From Kofleriaceae bacterium (GTDB lineage: Bacteria > Myxococcota_A > Polyangia > Haliangiales > Haliangiaceae), in the NCBI GenBank assembly GCA_046597055.1, contig JBKJLC010000198.1, positions 1-36,469 of the forward strand: a stretch of DNA of 36,469 nucleotides, written 5' to 3'. This document shows, piece by piece, positions 635 through 7,435 of the stretch. The notes under the pieces are model-generated. The model saw only the letters and a program-made list of their open reading frames with translations, did not search any database and was not told the DNA's origin. The translations under genes were made by a program, and so were the position numbers. Positions within the stretch are counted from its first letter, which is position 1; each line of letters begins with the position of its first letter.

Positions 635-745
635 CCGCGCCCGCGAACCCGCGGAGTCCGCCGCAGATTGCCGGGTTTCGACGTGCGGGAGCACGCCGGC
701 CACCCGGTATCACGCAACAGGCGTCCGTCACGCCAGGGAGAGATC

Positions 746-2248
746 ATGCGACAGATCCGTCGAGCTTCGTTCACCGCGTTTGCTCTGCTCGTCTTCATGC
801 TGCTGAGCGCCTGCGCCAGCGACGACCCGCGGCCGGGCACCGGCACGGTCTCGGTCAGCCTGGTCGGCCAGGCGGCCTCGGGCACGATCTATCGGCTGCG
901 CCGCGCCATCGTCCTGGTGCAGGGGCCGGCGTCGACCACGTTCTGGAACACCGAGGACGATCTCACGCGCACGACGCTGTCGGCCAACGTGGCGGCCGGC
1001 GACTACTACTCGTTCCTGCAAGAGGGATGGCAGCTCGAGAAGCTGGTCGCCGGCAACCCACCGGCGCCGGTCACCGCCCAGCTGATCTCGCCCAACCCGA
1101 CCTACTTCACCGTCGTCGATGACATGCGCACCACCGTGCCGCTCCGGTTCCGCGTCCCCGAGGGCGAGATCGACATGGACCAGGGCTACGGCATCGTCAT
1201 CGAGGTCGAGGAGGAGACCTCGGTGACGCCCGGCTACTGCACCACCGACGCCCAGTGCGGCGGCGGCCAGACCTGCTGCCTCGCCGGGTTCCTCGGCACC
1301 TGTCGCGCGCTGACCGCGGGCCAGGCGTGTCCGCTGCCCGACCTGACGGTGTCGGCCGACGCCGCTCGGACGAGCCTGTCGATCGGGCACGAGACGTTCG
1401 CGCCGACCAGCTGCGCGCTGGTCGAGGGCTGCGTCGCCGGCCCCGGCGATCGCCGCCTGCTCCGCTTCTCGACCGAGACGCCCAACATCGGCGCGGTCGA
1501 CATGGTCCTCGGGGATCCGTCGACCCAGCCCGGTTTCGAGTCGTCGACCTGCCACGGTCACTATCACTTCGAGGGCTACGCCGAGTACCAGCTGCTCGAC
1601 AAGACCGGCGCGGTGGCGGCGACCGGCCACAAGCAGGCGTTCTGTCTGCTCGACCTGCAGTCGTTGCCGGGTACCACCACCGGGCCGCGCTTCCACTGCG
1701 GATTCCAGGGCATCTCGGCCGGCTGGAGCGACGTCTACGGGTCCGGGCTGGACTGCCAGTGGGTCGACATCACCGGCGTCGCGCCCGGCTCGTACCTGCT
1801 GCGCATCACCGTCAACGGCGCGCGCACGCTGCCCGAGAGCAACTACGACAACAACACCATCCAGGTGCCGGTCACGATCCCGGCCGACGGGGTGATCGAG
1901 CCGCCCGGCGATCCGCTGGCGGCCTGTAGCGCGCCGGTGGTCGGGCCCAACCGCGACTGCGGCTGGGAGGTCGCCAGTGGTCAGCAGGCCGTGGCGTGCG
2001 TGCCCGGCACGCCGGTGACCCTCGGCTGCGGCTGTGGCACCGACACCTGCGGCAGCGATCCGGTGCTGCGCGTGTGCGACGGTGGCGAGGCGTGCATCGC
2101 GGCGACCGCGCTCGCGTCGATCGACGATACCTGCGGCCTCTGTCCGCAGGCTGGGTTCGTATGCCCGGCCAGCGGCACGTACACCGTCTTGACCGCGCCG
2201 TACGCGCCGGGCTCGGCGTACGCGTGCCAGGTGTCGGCGACGCCGTAG
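746..2248 (+). CDS. Lysyl oxidase family lipoprotein with Cys-rich flanking domains
   Basis: Lipobox LSAC; RRLLRFST..PNIG, CHGHYH, GHKQAFC, GISAGWSDVY, DCQWVDITG motifs; GGGAG upstream of ATG 746. Confidence 0.88.
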   Translation: MRQIRRASFTAFALLVFMLLSACASDDPRPGTGTVSVSLVGQAASGTIYRLRRAIVLVQGPASTTFWNTEDDLTRTTLSANVAAGDYYSFLQEGWQLEKLVAGNPPAPVTAQLISPNPTYFTVVDDMRTTVPLRFRVPEGEIDMDQGYGIVIEVEEETSVTPGYCTTDAQCGGGQTCCLAGFLGTCRALTAGQACPLPDLTVSADAARTSLSIGHETFAPTSCALVEGCVAGPGDRRLLRFSTETPNIGAVDMVLGDPSTQPGFESSTCHGHYHFEGYAEYQLLDKTGAVAATGHKQAFCLLDLQSLPGTTTGPRFHCGFQGISAGWSDVYGSGLDCQWVDITGVAPGSYLLRITVNGARTLPESNYDNNTIQVPVTIPADGVIEPPGDPLAACSAPVVGPNRDCGWEVASGQQAVACVPGTPVTLGCGCGTDTCGSDPVLRVCDGGEACIAATALASIDDTCGLCPQAGFVCPASGTYTVLTAPYAPGSAYACQVSATP

Positions 2249-3181: not shown

Positions 3182-3319
3182 TTCTGTTGACCGATCCCCG
3201 TTGGCTTGGTAGTCGGAGGGGGTGGCGTCCTCGGAGGACCGCCACCACCGGGCCGCGGCCGCCACCGTCGCGCGCCCCACTACTCACGCGTCGATCCAGG
3301 TCGACGAGAGGGGGATCGT

Positions 3320-4327
3320 ATGTCCACGTCCGGCCCGAAGAGATCATCACGCGGGATCATCGCCAGCGCGATCGCCGTGAGCGTCGCCAGTGTCGCCCTG
3401 GTCGCCTGCACCGACGACCTGACCCAACCGGACGGGCCGCTGCCCGAGCTCGCGGCGCCGGCGTCGGCGTCGGTCCCGCCGGCCGAGGGCGCGCTGCTCG
3501 GCGCGTTCGTCGGGGTCGGCACCGAGAGCGCCGAAGACTTCGCGGCCGAAGAGGAGCTGATCGGCCGGCGCTGGGTGATCGACAACCGCTTCTACTCGTC
3601 GGAGGACTGGATCAACGATCGCACTCGCTGGGACATCGCCCACCACAAGATCCCGATGATCACGTGGGAGCCACAGCACCAGACGCTCGACGACATCATC
3701 GCTGGCGTCCACGATGACAACATCCGGACCCGAGCCACCGGCGCGCGCGACCTCGGGGTCGAGATCTTCATGCGCTGGGGCCACGAGATGAACGGCAACT
3801 GGTACCCGTGGAGCGGCGCCAAGAACGGCGGGGCCGCCGGCGGTGCTGCCAAGTACATCGCGGCCTACCGCCACGTCCACGACCTGTTCCGCGAGGTCGG
3901 CGCCACCAACGTGGTGTGGGTGTGGTGCCCGCTGGTCACCGACGTCCCCGCCGAGCCGTGGAACCACTGGACCCACTACTACCCGGGCGACGCGTACGTC
4001 GACTGGGTCGGGCTCGACGCCTACAACTGGGGCTCGTCGGCGCCGTGCTGCGTGTGGCAGAGCTTCTCGACGCTGGTCGCGCAGCTGTACGGCGACTACG
4101 CCGGCAAGAAGCCGCTGATGTTGCCCGAGACGTCCTCGGCCGAGGTCGGCGGTGACAAGGCCGCCTGGATCCGCGACATGCACACCGCGCTCATGACCGA
4201 CTTCACCGCGATCAAGGCCGTCGTCTGGTTCGACATCGACAAGGAGACCGACTGGCGGATCGCGTCATCGCCCGCGACCCTGGCCGCATTCAAGGCGATG
4301 GCCCACGCGCCTTACTTCAATCCCTAG
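3320..4327 (+). CDS. Glycoside hydrolase family 26 (beta-mannanase-like) lipoprotein
   Basis: MRWGHEMNGNWYPW, YYPGDAYVDWVGLDAYN and KPLMLPET motifs; lipobox-like LVAC; GAGGGG upstream of ATG 3320. Confidence 0.9.
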   Translation: MSTSGPKRSSRGIIASAIAVSVASVALVACTDDLTQPDGPLPELAAPASASVPPAEGALLGAFVGVGTESAEDFAAEEELIGRRWVIDNRFYSSEDWINDRTRWDIAHHKIPMITWEPQHQTLDDIIAGVHDDNIRTRATGARDLGVEIFMRWGHEMNGNWYPWSGAKNGGAAGGAAKYIAAYRHVHDLFREVGATNVVWVWCPLVTDVPAEPWNHWTHYYPGDAYVDWVGLDAYNWGSSAPCCVWQSFSTLVAQLYGDYAGKKPLMLPETSSAEVGGDKAAWIRDMHTALMTDFTAIKAVVWFDIDKETDWRIASSPATLAAFKAMAHAPYFNP

Positions 4328-4346
4328 CGAGCGCTCCCGCTCATGA

Positions 4347-5069
4347 TCACGGTGGTTGCGGGCGTGCGTCACGCGCGACCGCCTCGGGCCAGCCGTCGGT
4401 GTTGATCCACAGCCGGTGGAGCTCGCGCGGGCTATCGGGCGGCAGCGCGCCGCGACCGTGGAGCATGCGGTGATTGTCGACGATGACCACCTCGCCAGCG
4501 CCGAGCTCGACGCCCACGAGGGCGGCCGGGTCGTCGCCGCGGAACCGCTCGATCAGGCGTGCCGCCACCGCACGCTCGCGTGGATCGGTGGGCACCTGCA
4601 GCTGCGGCGGCAGCCAGAAGAAGCGCGACGGGGCCGCGCCCCGGGCCTCGACCACCGGCACCAGCGGGCGCGCCGCCGGCGGCAGATCATCCATCAGGTC
4701 GGCGCAGCGCAGCCGTTCGGCGAGCCGCTGGTCGTCGGCGTCGAGGTGAGCGAAGGCGACCCGGGCGTCGAGGTAGAGGTTGGTCACCGGAGTCCGGCAC
4801 GGCGTGACGCAGTGCCAGGCGCACAGGTTGGCGCGCACGCTGTCGGTGTGGAATGGCACCGGCCGCGGGCTCATCACGAAGCGGCGCGAGCTCGGCTCGA
4901 CGAAGACCCGGAGCTCGGACCAGACGGTGCCGAGCTGGCGGGCGAAGTCGAGGAAGCGCGCCGAGCTCACGCGCTGCCGGATGTGGACGACGCCACGCTC
5001 GGCCAGGTGGGCGCGCGCCTCCGCGATGGCGTCGGCGCGGTCGAGGCTGGCCATCATCGGGGCGATCAC
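4347..5069 (-). CDS. TauD/TfdA-family Fe(II)/2-oxoglutarate-dependent dioxygenase
   Basis: HxD motif PFHTDS and distal DNHRMLHGR...RELHRLW; start overlaps the upstream stop (GTGA). Confidence 0.85.
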   Translation of the reverse strand: MIAPMMASLDRADAIAEARAHLAERGVVHIRQRVSSARFLDFARQLGTVWSELRVFVEPSSRRFVMSPRPVPFHTDSVRANLCAWHCVTPCRTPVTNLYLDARVAFAHLDADDQRLAERLRCADLMDDLPPAARPLVPVVEARGAAPSRFFWLPPQLQVPTDPRERAVAARLIERFRGDDPAALVGVELGAGEVVIVDNHRMLHGRGALPPDSPRELHRLWINTDGWPEAVARDARPQPP

Positions 5070-5572
5070 GGTGCACCGGCCGGGCGGCCCCAGGCGCGGA
5101 AGCGCTGGCCGAGGCTCGCGACCGGATAGCGGCGCTGGTAGCCGTCGTACCAGCGGGCCGCGACGTCAGGGCCGAGCTGCTGGTAGACGCGGGCGATCTG
5201 CGCGCGCAGGGCGGCGCGCTGCTGGTCGGCGGTGGCGGCACTGTCCTCGACGCCGGGCTGATGGTGGACGTAACCGCCGAGGTGGTCGTCGCAGAAGGCC
5301 GCGTAGGCGCGCGTCGACAGGATGAACGCGTGCCACAGCTCGTCGACCAGGGTCATCGAGGGCGTGATCACCAGCGAGGTGGCGCGATGGCTGGCGCACA
5401 GCCACAGCCAGCGCAGCGTGTCGGCCCACAGCTCGTCGGCCTCGTCGGCGCCGAGGTCCCAGGTGGCGGCGAAGCGATCGACGATCGCGGGCTGGCGGTA
5501 GCCGAGGACCTGGGCCAGCGGCTGCGGCGGGCGGGGCACGCCATGGAGCGGAAGGCTTGATGGGAGCGGCAT
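5066..5572 (-). CDS. Glycine-rich-domain (GRDP/DUF1399-like) protein
   Basis: VDELWHAFILSTRAYAAFC...GGYVHHQP signature; ATG at 5572. Confidence 0.75.
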   Translation of the reverse strand: MPLPSSLPLHGVPRPPQPLAQVLGYRQPAIVDRFAATWDLGADEADELWADTLRWLWLCASHRATSLVITPSMTLVDELWHAFILSTRAYAAFCDDHLGGYVHHQPGVEDSAATADQQRAALRAQIARVYQQLGPDVAARWYDGYQRRYPVASLGQRFRAWGRPAGAP

Positions 5573-5670
5573 GGCGACCCGACATTGCAGCCGCCATGCC
5601 CGGTGGGCGCGGCGTCGCGGCGCTCGCAAGGTCGCGCATCGACGGGGCGGCCGGCACGAAGGCGCGGTAA

Positions 5671-5797
5671 GACGGCGCGATCGCGCTGGAGGTGGAGCCC
5701 GCGCGCGTTGCCCGCGGGCAACGGCAGGCCGGTCGAGGCGGCGACGGCGCGATCGGCGCTGGAGGTGGAGCCCCGCGCGTTCCCTGCGGGCAACAGC
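5671..5797. repeat. Two ~55-bp imperfect direct repeats; the first contains an 18-bp perfect palindrome
   Basis: Copies at 5671-5725 and 5743-5797; CGTTGCCCGCGGGCAACG at 5706-5723. Confidence 0.85.
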
Positions 5798-5958
5798 GAC
5801 GGGGCGAGGGTGCTCGCGGAGCGCGCGCTGCCGCGACGAAGTGAGCCGGCGCGCGCAGATGTCGCGCTCGCGATGTCACGCCGGTCTGGCACGCGACGTG
5901 AAGTTGCTGCGTCCATCGTCAACAACGACGACCACCACTCCAGCCACAGGATGATCCC

Positions 5959-6186
5959 ATGAAGCATTCCAAGCCTGCCCCGACCGCCGCCCCCGCCACC
6001 ACGACCGACGCCGCCGACCGTGAGCGGGCGATCGACGCCCTGCTCGCCACCGTCACTGGCGGCGGCGGCGCGACCTGCTTCAACCCCGCCATCGCGGCCG
6101 GCGCGACCTGCTTCAGCCCCGCCGTCGCGGCCGGCGCGACCTGCTTCTCGCCGGCGCTGGTGATGATGCCGTTCGACGAGCGCTGA
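5959..6186 (+). CDS. Putative RiPP precursor: double-glycine-type leader plus three 11-aa tandem cores GATCF(N/S)PA
   Basis: IDALLATVTGG leader motif; cores start at 6067, 6100 and 6133 (33-nt period); AGGA upstream; hairpin downstream. Confidence 0.75.
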   Translation: MKHSKPAPTAAPATTTDAADRERAIDALLATVTGGGGATCFNPAIAAGATCFSPAVAAGATCFSPALVMMPFDER

Positions 6187-6194
6187 CGCGAGTA

Positions 6195-6217
6195 GCCGCG
6201 GTCAGCGTGACCGCGGC
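6195..6217 (+). terminator. GC-rich hairpin after the putative precursor (terminator or mRNA-stabilising stem)
   Basis: GCCGCGGTCA-gcg-TGACCGCGGC, 10-bp perfect stem; no U-tract. Confidence 0.45.
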
Positions 6218-6301
6218 CGCCCGGTCGTGCGCAATGCCACATCGTGCCGGTTTCAACGACTTCAACAGAGCGCCTACCGTGCGTGATAGTGACGAACCGG
6301 C

Positions 6302-7435
6302 ATGATCATCTTTTACGGGCACCGCTTCTACGGGCGTATCGACGGTCACGGCGCCGAGTACCTGGCGACCACATTCGCGCATGTCTACTTCCTGCCGCTG
6401 TTCCCGACCGGCTCAAGGTGGGTGACGCGTCAGGTCGGCGATCAGGTCCTGGGCTTCGACGTGAAGCTGTCCGCGCGGAGCGTGGCGGCCGCCTATCTGC
6501 GGATCTGGGCACCTCTCTTGGCGCTCGGACTGGGCGCCACGCTGACGATCCCCGGCATCGCCGTGGCCGTCGGGCTGCTCGCGCTATCGGCGTGGAGCTG
6601 GACCTGGCTCCGGATCCGCGGCGGGCACGAACGCCGCCGCGCGCTGCTCAATCAGATCGCCTTCGGAGCCGCCTGTGATCCGATGCGCCGCCCGGTCGCG
6701 CAGTGCGAAGCGCTCCGCTGCGAGGTCGACCAGCGCTTCGCCGAGGTGAGCGGCGCTCGCACCCCGGAGGACGTCGCACGGTTCGGCGCCGACTCACCGG
6801 CGCACGCAGCCCTGGCCTACGCGTCGCTCCGGTTGGTGGCCGCGATCGCGGGCGGTGACACTGGTCGCAAGGCGCGCGCGGTGTCGGACTCCCTCCTCGA
6901 CAACGTCTCCACCGGCGATGCGAGGGCGCTCGCCGACGGCGGTCCCTACCGCGTCGAGGCGCGCGCCTCGGACTCGGTCGTCTCCGCGTTGGAGGCCGCG
7001 GCGGCCGCTGTGATCCAGGCGCAGGATCGCGGCATCGACGAGTCGATCCGCGCGGCTCAGCCGGCCAGCGCCTGGGACAACAGCCCCGAGAACCCGGCCG
7101 TCAAGGAGGAGATCGCGCGCAACAAGGCGCAGCGTGCGGGCACCAACCGCCTTGCCTGGGTCGCGCTCGTCGTCGTGGCTGTGGCGAGCGGCGCGTACGT
7201 GATCTACGACATCGCCACGAAGCACGTCGCCACCGATCGGGCGCTCACCGAGCTCCGCAGCATCAGCGACGAGCTCTGCCGGTGCCCGACCCGCGCCTGC
7301 TTCGTCGACCTGCTCGAGGCGCGCAGACCCGCCATCGACCGCGCCGAGCGCACCGTACGAGAGAACGAATCGAGCGACTCGGAGCTCGATCAGCTCGCCG
7401 ACCGGGCTGAGCGCTGTTACGACGCACTGCCGTAG
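6302..7435 (+). CDS. Hypothetical membrane protein
   Basis: MIIFYG...FAHVYFLPLFP N-terminus; several hydrophobic segments; C-terminal CxC...C...C. Confidence 0.75.
   Translation: MIIFYGHRFYGRIDGHGAEYLATTFAHVYFLPLFPTGSRWVTRQVGDQVLGFDVKLSARSVAAAYLRIWAPLLALGLGATLTIPGIAVAVGLLALSAWSWTWLRIRGGHERRRALLNQIAFGAACDPMRRPVAQCEALRCEVDQRFAEVSGARTPEDVARFGADSPAHAALAYASLRLVAAIAGGDTGRKARAVSDSLLDNVSTGDARALADGGPYRVEARASDSVVSALEAAAAAVIQAQDRGIDESIRAAQPASAWDNSPENPAVKEEIARNKAQRAGTNRLAWVALVVVAVASGAYVIYDIATKHVATDRALTELRSISDELCRCPTRACFVDLLEARRPAIDRAERTVRENESSDSELDQLADRAERCYDALP

Follow-up and report, generated by a model that had tools for sequence, protein, structure and literature searches.

A candidate RiPP-like cassette from a Kofleriaceae bacterium, with a repeat-bearing cysteine peptide, a predicted helical leader-binding protein of family PF27765 and a TauD-type oxygenase

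We analyzed a 36,469-nt stretch of DNA from a Kofleriaceae bacterium, a soil myxobacterium (GenBank assembly GCA_046597055.1, contig JBKJLC010000198.1, positions 1 to 36,469), referred to here as the window, for a small locus in which a gene encoding a 75-aa cysteine-containing peptide lies divergent from two genes encoding a 168-aa protein of the family PF27765 and a 240-aa TauD-type Fe(II)/2-oxoglutarate (2OG) oxygenase. The three genes probably constitute a cassette of an undescribed class resembling those for peptides that are made on ribosomes and modified post-translationally (RiPPs), in which the peptide would be oxidised by the coupled TauD protein after recognition of its leader. At the level of sequence, the support consists of the gene order, the start/stop coupling of the two protein genes, the repeats, the motifs, the iron triad, conservation in a second genus and adjacency throughout the family. 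Several features characteristic of RiPP loci were found together, namely a precursor gene adjoining tailoring genes, a conserved leader ahead of a variable core across loci and, in silico, a predicted recognition of the leader. The cassette itself was encountered in two genomes and appears to be a rare member of a very widespread, apparently undescribed RiPP-like family with a new helical leader-binding hallmark protein.

The peptide ORF (open reading frame) is separated by 386 bp from the divergent two-gene operon (Table 1). Within this operon the bases 5066-5069 are shared between the TGA stop of the 168-aa gene and the GTG start of the TauD gene, a start that is consistent with that of the ortholog in G030, a metagenome-assembled genome (MAG) of a different genus of the same family. 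For the 168-aa gene the ATG at 5572 is the likely start because this form (P0001) stands in the protein collection, while the TTG at 5629 (ORF 5066-5629) is less likely. A first-pass annotation made by a model from the letters had described a 75-aa ORF with a leader and three Cys-containing tandem units, a GTGA overlap coupling the two minus-strand genes, a DELWHxFIL..YxxFC..HH.P signature in one of the proteins and an Fe(II)/2OG oxygenase with an intact HxD...H triad in the other. All four descriptions were borne out, by the peptide ORF and its 33-nt repeat, by the ORF coordinates, by the sequence and conservation in 50 family members, and by the Pfam match and iron ligands of the oxygenase, respectively.

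The window peptide begins with a leader in which charged residues are followed by I-D-A-L-L-x-T-V-x-G-G; an amphipathic helix (RERAIDALLATVT) leads to a GGGG end. Each of the three units that follow opens with ATCF(N/S)PA and has GG or AG just before it, and the coding DNA carries a 33-nt tandem repeat (Tandem Repeats Finder, 6062-6147, 2.6 copies, 94% matches; copies within the ORF according to the repeat search at 6066-6098, 6099-6131 and 6132-6164). The G+C content at third codon positions (GC3) of the peptide ORF was 0.93, compared to 0.88-0.92 for the true genes of the window, 0.81 for the antisense ORF and 0.65 for the +2 frame. A stem-loop lies directly 3' of the stop codon, where folding of 6184-6235 gave -28 kcal/mol (z -2.58), with 2 of 200 shuffled sequences folding as well. 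A scan of positions 4200-6500 for consensus promoters and terminators returned no matches, the hairpin being missed because it lacks a T-run.

The same divergent arrangement of all three genes is present in G030, with identities of 66% for TauD, 62% for the 168-aa protein and 61.5% for the peptide (E 5.6e-18). That homologous pairs of the two protein genes never co-occur with such a peptide, an outcome which the first-pass annotation had named as counting against its proposal, is therefore not what was found. The G030 peptide has 57 aa and two Cys units, and comparison of its codons with those of the window peptide revealed 24 identical ones, 13 with synonymous-only differences and 20 with nonsynonymous differences, the differences falling mostly on third positions (22, with 15 and 11 at the other two). 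In both records the small ORF had been called as a gene by the depositors, and, judged by its sequence, the peptide ORF is a real gene. The peptide matches no family in Pfam or NCBIfam. A search of a 5.8-billion-protein collection with it yielded 311 candidates, among which only the window product and its G030 ortholog are relatives.

The 168-aa protein is labelled PF27765.1 (a precomputed label on P0001-P0003), a family without assigned function that carries the name 'UCP032817-like' in Pfam 38.1, and 73-96% of its Atlas neighbours belong to PF27765. The PF27765 model is absent from the Pfam copy used in our scans, in which the protein matched no family at E<=10, nor did it match any in NCBIfam. 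The family is large, with 2967 representative clusters at E<=1e-3, while 543 are counted at the stricter E<=1e-10. Alignment of 50 members showed that D77, W80, H81, F83, Y90, H104, P106 and W141 are invariant and that E78, C94, G99 and H103 are conserved in at least 90%; the motif of the window protein reads DELWHAFIL...YAAFC...HHQP. The AlphaFold2 model calculated from this alignment is confident and all-helical without strands (predicted local distance difference test, pLDDT, 91.8; predicted template modelling score, pTM, 0.87). No solved relative of this predicted fold emerged: Foldseek against the PDB gave no match at E<=0.001 (best 0.46, a non-significant hit to an extracytoplasmic function (ECF) sigma factor), VIA-align over 48161 chains gave none with Z>=5 (best Z 3.6), and phmmer and profile searches of PDB sequences gave no significant match.

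The first-pass annotation had suggested that this protein could be a peptide-binding partner, an idea that gained support in silico from a controlled complex prediction. The 168-aa protein (50-row alignment) was modelled with the 75-aa peptide in three runs and alongside three controls, and the interface score (interaction prediction score from aligned errors, ipSAE) was 0.81, 0.79 and 0.81 in the three runs as opposed to 0.00 for the best control. Of 157 solved complexes 116 reach that mark, as do 2 of 215 mismatched pairs, in a calibration of the tool that is only roughly applicable to a prediction based on our own alignment. Since the fold has no relative of solved structure, the tool is unlikely to have reproduced a known complex. 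The runs share at least 38% of their contacts. Closer examination of the confident contacts revealed that on the peptide side they involve residues 21, 24-26, 28-29 and 31-33, which is the conserved leader helix with I25, L28, L29 and V32, and on the protein side residues 70-72 and 119-146. In the model the leader helix touches residues 130-131 with its N-terminal end; its C-terminal end contacts 119-123 and 142-146 and is close to the start of the helix after the HH-x-P loop. Judging by these contacts of the C-terminal end, the first unit and the GGGG linker before it would come out close to the invariant motif. D77, E78, H81, C94, H103 and H104 are located outside the predicted leader groove. 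The prediction supports binding of the leader helix by the 168-aa protein.

The 240-aa protein matched Pfam TauD (PF02668) with E 3.9e-14 and 53.6 bits, the cut-off being 27. Its iron triad consists of H74, D76 and H204, the last of these within the sequence DNHRMLHGR that starts at position 198, and all three residues align with the triad in nine relatives linked to PF27765 or to glycine-rich domain protein (GRDP)-like domains. The TauD subfamily of the window was found to occur adjoining, or fused to, domains of these two kinds.

To place the locus within its family we examined the best 80 of 361 genomic relatives of the 168-aa protein and listed the small ORFs around each. These loci span Myxococcota, Bacteroidota, Cyanobacteria, Gamma- and Betaproteobacteria, the candidate phyla radiation (CPR), Planctomycetota and Bdellovibrionota. 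In at least seven phyla short ORFs on the same strand recur beside PF27765 members and encode an amphipathic leader, often ending in GG, GA or SG, followed by a short Cys-containing core. A leader hidden Markov model (HMM) built from 25 ORFs taken by coordinate was run on 21929 stop-to-stop segments of 87 loci, and 46 segments scored 8 bits or more; 45 share the strand of the PF27765 gene, and 45 are no farther than 1.2 kb from that gene. When the count is restricted to the 80 loci, 44 matches were near and one was far, despite 1.5 times more residues having been searched far away. The cores behind these leaders are very diverse, and cysteine was present in the core of all 21 non-seed matches, which had been found without any Cys filter. 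Mini-ORFs of the same kind were also present in three of four distant loci from a metagenome scan with the three closest proteins; the fourth, a contig of about 1.07 kb, offers little sequence beside the gene. No TCF cores were detected in these four. The first-pass annotation had proposed to check whether GG-leader peptides with repeated TCFxP-like cores repeatedly adjoin homologs of the two proteins; short ORFs with a leader and a Cys core recur across phyla, and repeated TCFxP cores turned up in only two genomes. Fifteen precursors from other loci gave only sub-threshold matches (RaxX, XyeA, CCRG-2, bacteriocin_sig and Bacteriocin_IIc). Several precursors elsewhere in the family have internal Cys-motif repeats of their own (Table 1), including six C-R-G-G-G-G in a Cylindrospermum, F-C-x-E in Alteromonas, C-N-G-x-C in Uabimicrobium and C-P-P-P-R-L twice in a Saprospiraceae MAG, and repetition of a Cys unit is therefore a trait of the family and not a peculiarity of the window.

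Two further groups of small ORFs were noted beside PF27765 genes. A Bacteroidota subfamily encodes 34-35-aa peptides whose cores carry His-Cys pairs (HC...HC); these are followed by the PF27765 gene and then by a gene for a conserved protein of about 300 aa without a Pfam family, with outer-membrane barrel/receptor genes or a CobW-type GTPase nearby at some of the loci, a hint that the peptides bind metal. In relatives of the window organism from the same genus, a PF27765 homolog that is 36-38% identical is preceded by ORFs of 77-126 aa with a signal-peptide-like N-terminus and a conserved acidic helix, as well as a Cys-rich C-terminal end in L012 and L013. These ORFs may represent a secreted-precursor variant.

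The genes surrounding PF27765 members were surveyed in 83 flanking ORFs from loci with a G+C content of up to 62%. Among these were three TauD genes directly downstream (two in CPR bacteria and one in an Oligoflexales), seven S9 peptidases, seven HlyD proteins, two ATP-binding cassette (ABC) transporters with a C39 peptidase and one further ABC transporter, three methyltransferases, one glycosyltransferase of family GT2, one C-terminal domain of LanB (lanthipeptide dehydratase) and one fatty-acid hydroxylase. A tblastn search located TauD near the PF27765 gene in L015 and L088 as well, and more weakly or at a greater distance in L045 and L049. Five of 16 longer or odd family members proved to be fusions, with TauD (P0113), JmjC (P0101), S-adenosylmethionine (SAM) methyltransferases (P0084 and P0123) and a glycosyltransferase of family GT4 (P0137), and the D/E-x-W-H...HH-x-P motif is retained in all fusion types. 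Because the domain travels with many unrelated tailoring enzymes beside peptides that share a leader and not a core, PF27765 has the signature of a leader-recognition module.

Tandem double PF27765 domains were present in P0004, P0008, P0098, P0101 and P0136, and in P0098 and P0101 one of the two copies gave no match to the searched D-x-x-W-H pattern. In Kaistella and relatives the PF27765 gene is placed between a gene for a LanB C-terminal domain and one for an S9 peptidase, and the precursor there is rich in Thr and Cys.

Taken together, these observations suggest the following sequence of events for the window cassette. The 75-aa product would be the precursor, composed of an amphipathic leader helix, a GGGG linker and three repeated Cys units. 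The 168-aa PF27765 protein would recognise it by means of a predicted groove of its C-terminal helices (119-146, plus 70-72) that holds the hydrophobic face formed by I25, L28, L29 and V32, with the end of the leader pointing toward the invariant His/Asp/Cys motif in a presentation geometry deduced from the model. The translationally coupled TauD-type oxygenase, using Fe(II), 2OG and O2, would then oxidise the presented units, most likely by side-chain hydroxylation, and would make the same change on each repeat. Cleavage after GG or AG and export might be provided in trans by a C39-peptidase ABC transporter of the genome. Six C39 peptidase genes are located on other contigs of the same genome and none was found among the window ORFs by Pfam scan; the gene for the 168-aa protein is single-copy in the genome.

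A number of observations weigh against this proposal or limit its reach. TauD is found at a minority of family loci (5 of 80 in clear form and 2 more that are weak or distant), peptides of the TCF(N/S)P type are known from two genomes only, and no peptidase or transporter gene was found in the Pfam scan of 28 ORFs in the window. The position of the core in the complex model is uncertain, the partner having a pLDDT of about 50 (at least 49). The seed ORFs for the leader HMM were chosen by eye or through a filter that required cysteine, and for this reason their cysteines prove nothing. A leader match of at least 8 bits was obtained in only 38 of the 80 loci, and among 57 non-seed loci in 15 at 8 bits and 24 at 6 bits, further candidates being recognised only by eye. 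The HMM, which was trained mostly on leaders from loci of lower G+C content, assigned the window leader a score not above 0 bits and its G030 ortholog 3.3 bits. Because of this low score, the place of the window leader in the shared leader family rests on its pattern, its ortholog and the complex model.

The most serious alternative to oxidation by TauD after leader recognition is that the PF27765 protein is itself the maturase that defines the family, a metal-dependent (e.g. Zn or Fe) enzyme that binds the leader and acts on the thiol of the core cysteine, which would be activated or held for alkylation, cross-linking or oxidation, with TauD as an optional second tailoring step. We regard this as unlikely on balance; still, a catalytic or thiol-holding role has to be taken seriously because the conserved motif lies outside the groove, cysteine is constant in the cores and several loci show only exporters. 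Cysteine is the only feature common to all cores, and at L041, L054, L066, L076, L077 and L092 only the peptide, PF27765 and exporters were observed, without any other enzyme in the two flanking ORFs. In addition, D77, E78, H81, C94, H103 and H104 are invariant or nearly so and kept in every fusion type, and GRDP-like relatives carry in cis a Cys/His-rich tail where the PF27765 loci encode Cys peptides in trans. The fold of the 168-aa protein, on the other hand, matches no known enzyme, its conserved residues could be structural, and a domain fused to many unrelated enzymes would more typically be a recognition module. The His/Asp/Cys site could be catalytic, metal-binding or only structural.

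The GRDP-like relatives just mentioned belong to PF07173, also known as DUF1399, and the first-pass annotation had labelled the 168-aa protein 'GRDP/DUF1399-like'. The label applies only in the sense of distant homology. At E<=10 no match to the PF07173 model was obtained in the entire genome, the 168-aa protein included. An hhalign comparison of the PF27765 alignment with one PF07173 member gave a probability of 62% (E 7.5e-5) over 103 columns in which the DxxWH...Y..C...H motifs are aligned, and some PF27765 members have been named 'glycine-rich domain-containing protein' by NCBI. The two families appear to be remote relatives that have a (D)xxWHxH/FxL...Y...C...H motif in common, and the TauD subfamily of the window is also the one to which bacterial PF07173 members are coupled or fused. 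PF07173 members were found in three of 151 Myxococcota genomes, and all three are linked to TauD. One of the genes lies directly upstream of a TauD gene whose product is 31% identical to that of the window (E 3e-22), and the other two encode fusions of 426 and 447 aa with TauD at the N-terminal and the GRDP-like domain at the C-terminal end. In contrast to the 168-aa protein, all three end in a Cys/His-rich tail (CWHDC...CWHAC), and judging by their sequences they look like a cis version of the arrangement of a peptide plus PF27765. In the titles and abstract openings of the literature, GRDP-like/DUF1399 domains are known from plant glycine-rich domain proteins, and no link of these domains to bacterial peptides or RiPPs was found there.

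A broader proposal, which we put forward tentatively, combines both roles in one fold. PF27765 and its GRDP-like sisters might constitute a new fold that grips an amphipathic leader helix and acts on or holds Cys thiols through the invariant His/Asp/Cys, probably metal, site. They might thereby define a very large cross-phylum superfamily of cysteine-directed ribosomal peptides, with TauD, methyltransferases, glycosyltransferases, LanB and S9 peptidases as optional modules and the GRDP-like tail proteins as the cis (self-substrate) form. If this were true, it would provide a first biochemical lead for the plant GRDP/DUF1399 domain. The reading of the locus as a RiPP-like cassette, if correct, would by itself make the window one way into a RiPP class that has gone unrecognised, with thousands of relatives of its hallmark protein in bacteria from soil, marine and freshwater settings and from the CPR. 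Such a class would escape genome-mining tools built for known ones, since no function has been assigned to the hallmark and no curated family is matched by the precursors. A testable function would be offered for the GRDP/DUF1399 domain, which has been studied in plant biology only by phenotype. The system would also represent a second mode of leader recognition, structurally unrelated to that of the PqqD-like RiPP recognition element (RRE), and the leader HMM together with PF27765 adjacency would serve as a handle for precursor prediction. The small three-gene cassette is suited to direct reconstitution.

It is improbable that the peptide stays unmodified and acts as a double-glycine bacteriocin or in the manner of a microcin, with the 168-aa protein as its immunity or escort protein and TauD functionally unrelated. 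The leaders do end in GG, exporters of the HlyD and peptidase-containing ABC transporter (PCAT) types are frequent neighbours in other phyla, there is a weak sub-threshold resemblance to bacteriocin leader models, and small genes beside bacteriocin genes often encode immunity proteins; against such a reading stand the start/stop overlap of the 168-aa gene with TauD, the recurrent adjacency or fusion with TauD, JmjC, methyltransferases and glycosyltransferases, the conservation of invariant polar residues across phyla and the soluble all-helical nature of a protein whose predicted target is the leader, a part removed before the peptide acts. That the small ORF is no gene at all and the two proteins act on a small molecule or another protein is less probable still, since against the many spurious ORFs that arise in high-GC DNA stand its GC3 relative to the rival frames, the synonymous changes and third-position peak in comparison with G030, a frame that is preserved while the number of units varies, the hairpin immediately 3' of the stop, comparable mini-ORFs beside the family in many phyla and the passing complex prediction.

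The proposed cassette was compared with known peptide-modifying systems. The closest working analogue that we found in print is SmaO/SmaX, where an Fe(II)/2OG oxygenase acts together with another small protein on a precursor that has a GG motif and leaves the cell through a PCAT; some organisms have the two enzymes as a fusion, and related clusters contain TauD-like relatives (PMC12186529). The pairing of an Fe(II)/2OG oxygenase with a small partner protein is similar, but SmaX is an HD-domain protein (DUF6817/HD_4 by HHpred) and the Sma substrate residue is Asp (PMC12186529). The 168-aa protein gave no Pfam match at E<=10 and no PDB fold match, and Cys is the residue shared by PF27765-linked cores. 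The only HD-domain chain listed by Foldseek for the 168-aa model was a Cas3 HD domain at E 2.4.

PqqD-like RREs are winged helix-turn-helix domains that pair with the leader as a beta-strand and either stand alone or are fused to diverse tailoring enzymes. The 168-aa protein would resemble them as a small, predicted leader-binding domain that occurs alone or fused to many tailoring enzymes. It differs in being all-helical, in the predicted placement of the leader helix in a helical groove and in its invariant His/Asp/Cys motif. PqqD-type features were not apparent in it, as judged by the lack of a Pfam match, the lack of strands and the absence of an RRE chain among the fold matches.

With double-glycine leader peptides processed by C39 PCATs, such as class II bacteriocins and cyanobacterial GG-leader RiPPs, the family has in common an amphipathic-helix leader ending in GG and, at many loci, PCAT or HlyD genes as neighbours. 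The window locus differs from these in having no PCAT gene, a peptide without a match to a curated leader family and a dedicated, conserved partner protein. Multi-core precursors occur in cyanobactins and some graspetides, and the tandem near-identical units of the window peptide, whose number varies between orthologs (three in the window and two in G030), are comparable, whereas no cyanobactin protease or ATP-grasp gene is present at the window locus.

The first-pass annotation had stated that the window holds no radical SAM, LanM, YcaO, MNIO, protease or transporter gene and that the locus fits no recognised class. The former agrees with our Pfam scan of the 28 window ORFs, in which none of these was detected, and the latter with the finding that the locus matches no curated RiPP precursor or enzyme family tested in Pfam and NCBIfam. 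No mention of PF27765 or UCP032817 was found in the literature searched, which excluded subscription journals and supplements, and no description of a PF27765-linked family was found there in work on RiPPs, TauD, leader peptides, cysteine-rich peptides or PCATs. CoiH, from a newly reported family of sulfoxide-forming RiPP enzymes (bioRxiv preprint 2026-08-27), was considered and rejected as it is a different, longer protein tied to class I lanthipeptide clusters.

Table 1. Positions of the features described in the text. Positions without a prefix refer to the window; L numbers denote other loci.
Feature	Position	Strand	Basis or remark
Putative precursor peptide gene, 75 aa + stop	5959..6186	+	ORF list; leader aa 1-37 (5959-6069) ending GGGG
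Predicted bound leader helix	aa 21-33 = 6019-6057	+	interface residues from complex model
Three tandem Cys units	6070..6183: aa 38-48 (6070-6102), aa 49-59 (6103-6135), aa 60-75 (6136-6183)	+	33-nt tandem repeat
Stem-loop, perfect 10-bp stem, directly 3' of peptide stop	6195..6217	+	RNA folding
Divergent intergenic region with ~72-bp tandem direct repeat	5573..5958		repeat search
168-aa PF27765 (UCP032817-like) protein gene	5066..5572 (coding 5572-5069, stop 5068-5066)	-	predicted leader-binding partner
240-aa short TauD/TfdA-family Fe(II)/2OG oxygenase gene	4347..5069	-	Pfam TauD; triad H74, D76, H204
Internal Cys-motif repeats in other precursors	L039:4549-4818, L076:4583-4925, L077:4572-4923, L044:4757-4900, L070:1391-1627		
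Myxococcota GRDP-like (PF07173) proteins	L096:1288-2568, L097:484-1827, L095:1282-1761	-, +, -	two fused behind TauD, one upstream of TauD
Kaistella locus features	L022:3606-4484, L022:4716-4922, L022:5441-6364		
Bacteroidota 34-35-aa HC...HC peptides	L084:1277-1384, L091:4836-4943, L086:4842-4946, L093:4834-4938, L094:4835-4939		
ORFs before same-genus PF27765 homologs	L013:5109-5402 and 5633-5866, L012:7738-8118, L011:7448-7819	-, +, +	

In the divergent promoter region, between the peptide gene and the two-gene operon, a sequence of about 72 bp is repeated directly and in tandem, with copies at 5671-5742 and 5743-5814. Each copy includes a 16-nt palindrome, GTTGCCCGCGGGCAAC at 5707-5722 and a variant at 5779-5794, and the palindrome pattern yielded three matches compared to 0.01 expected. 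The palindrome, which was not found in the orthologous G030 locus, could be the binding site of a regulator.

The three-gene locus is flanked by a GH26 glycosidase gene (3206-4327, +) and a 377-aa unannotated ORF (6302-7435, +). The remainder of the 36-kb window encodes housekeeping functions, among them succinate dehydrogenase/fumarate reductase-type subunits, topoisomerase I, hemA/hemC, thioredoxin, PBP2 and MreBC. A 526-aa, secreted-looking Cys-rich protein encoded at 668-2248 (+) gives a strong match to the lysyl oxidase domain (Pfam PF01186, E 1e-34); this family is more familiar in animals.

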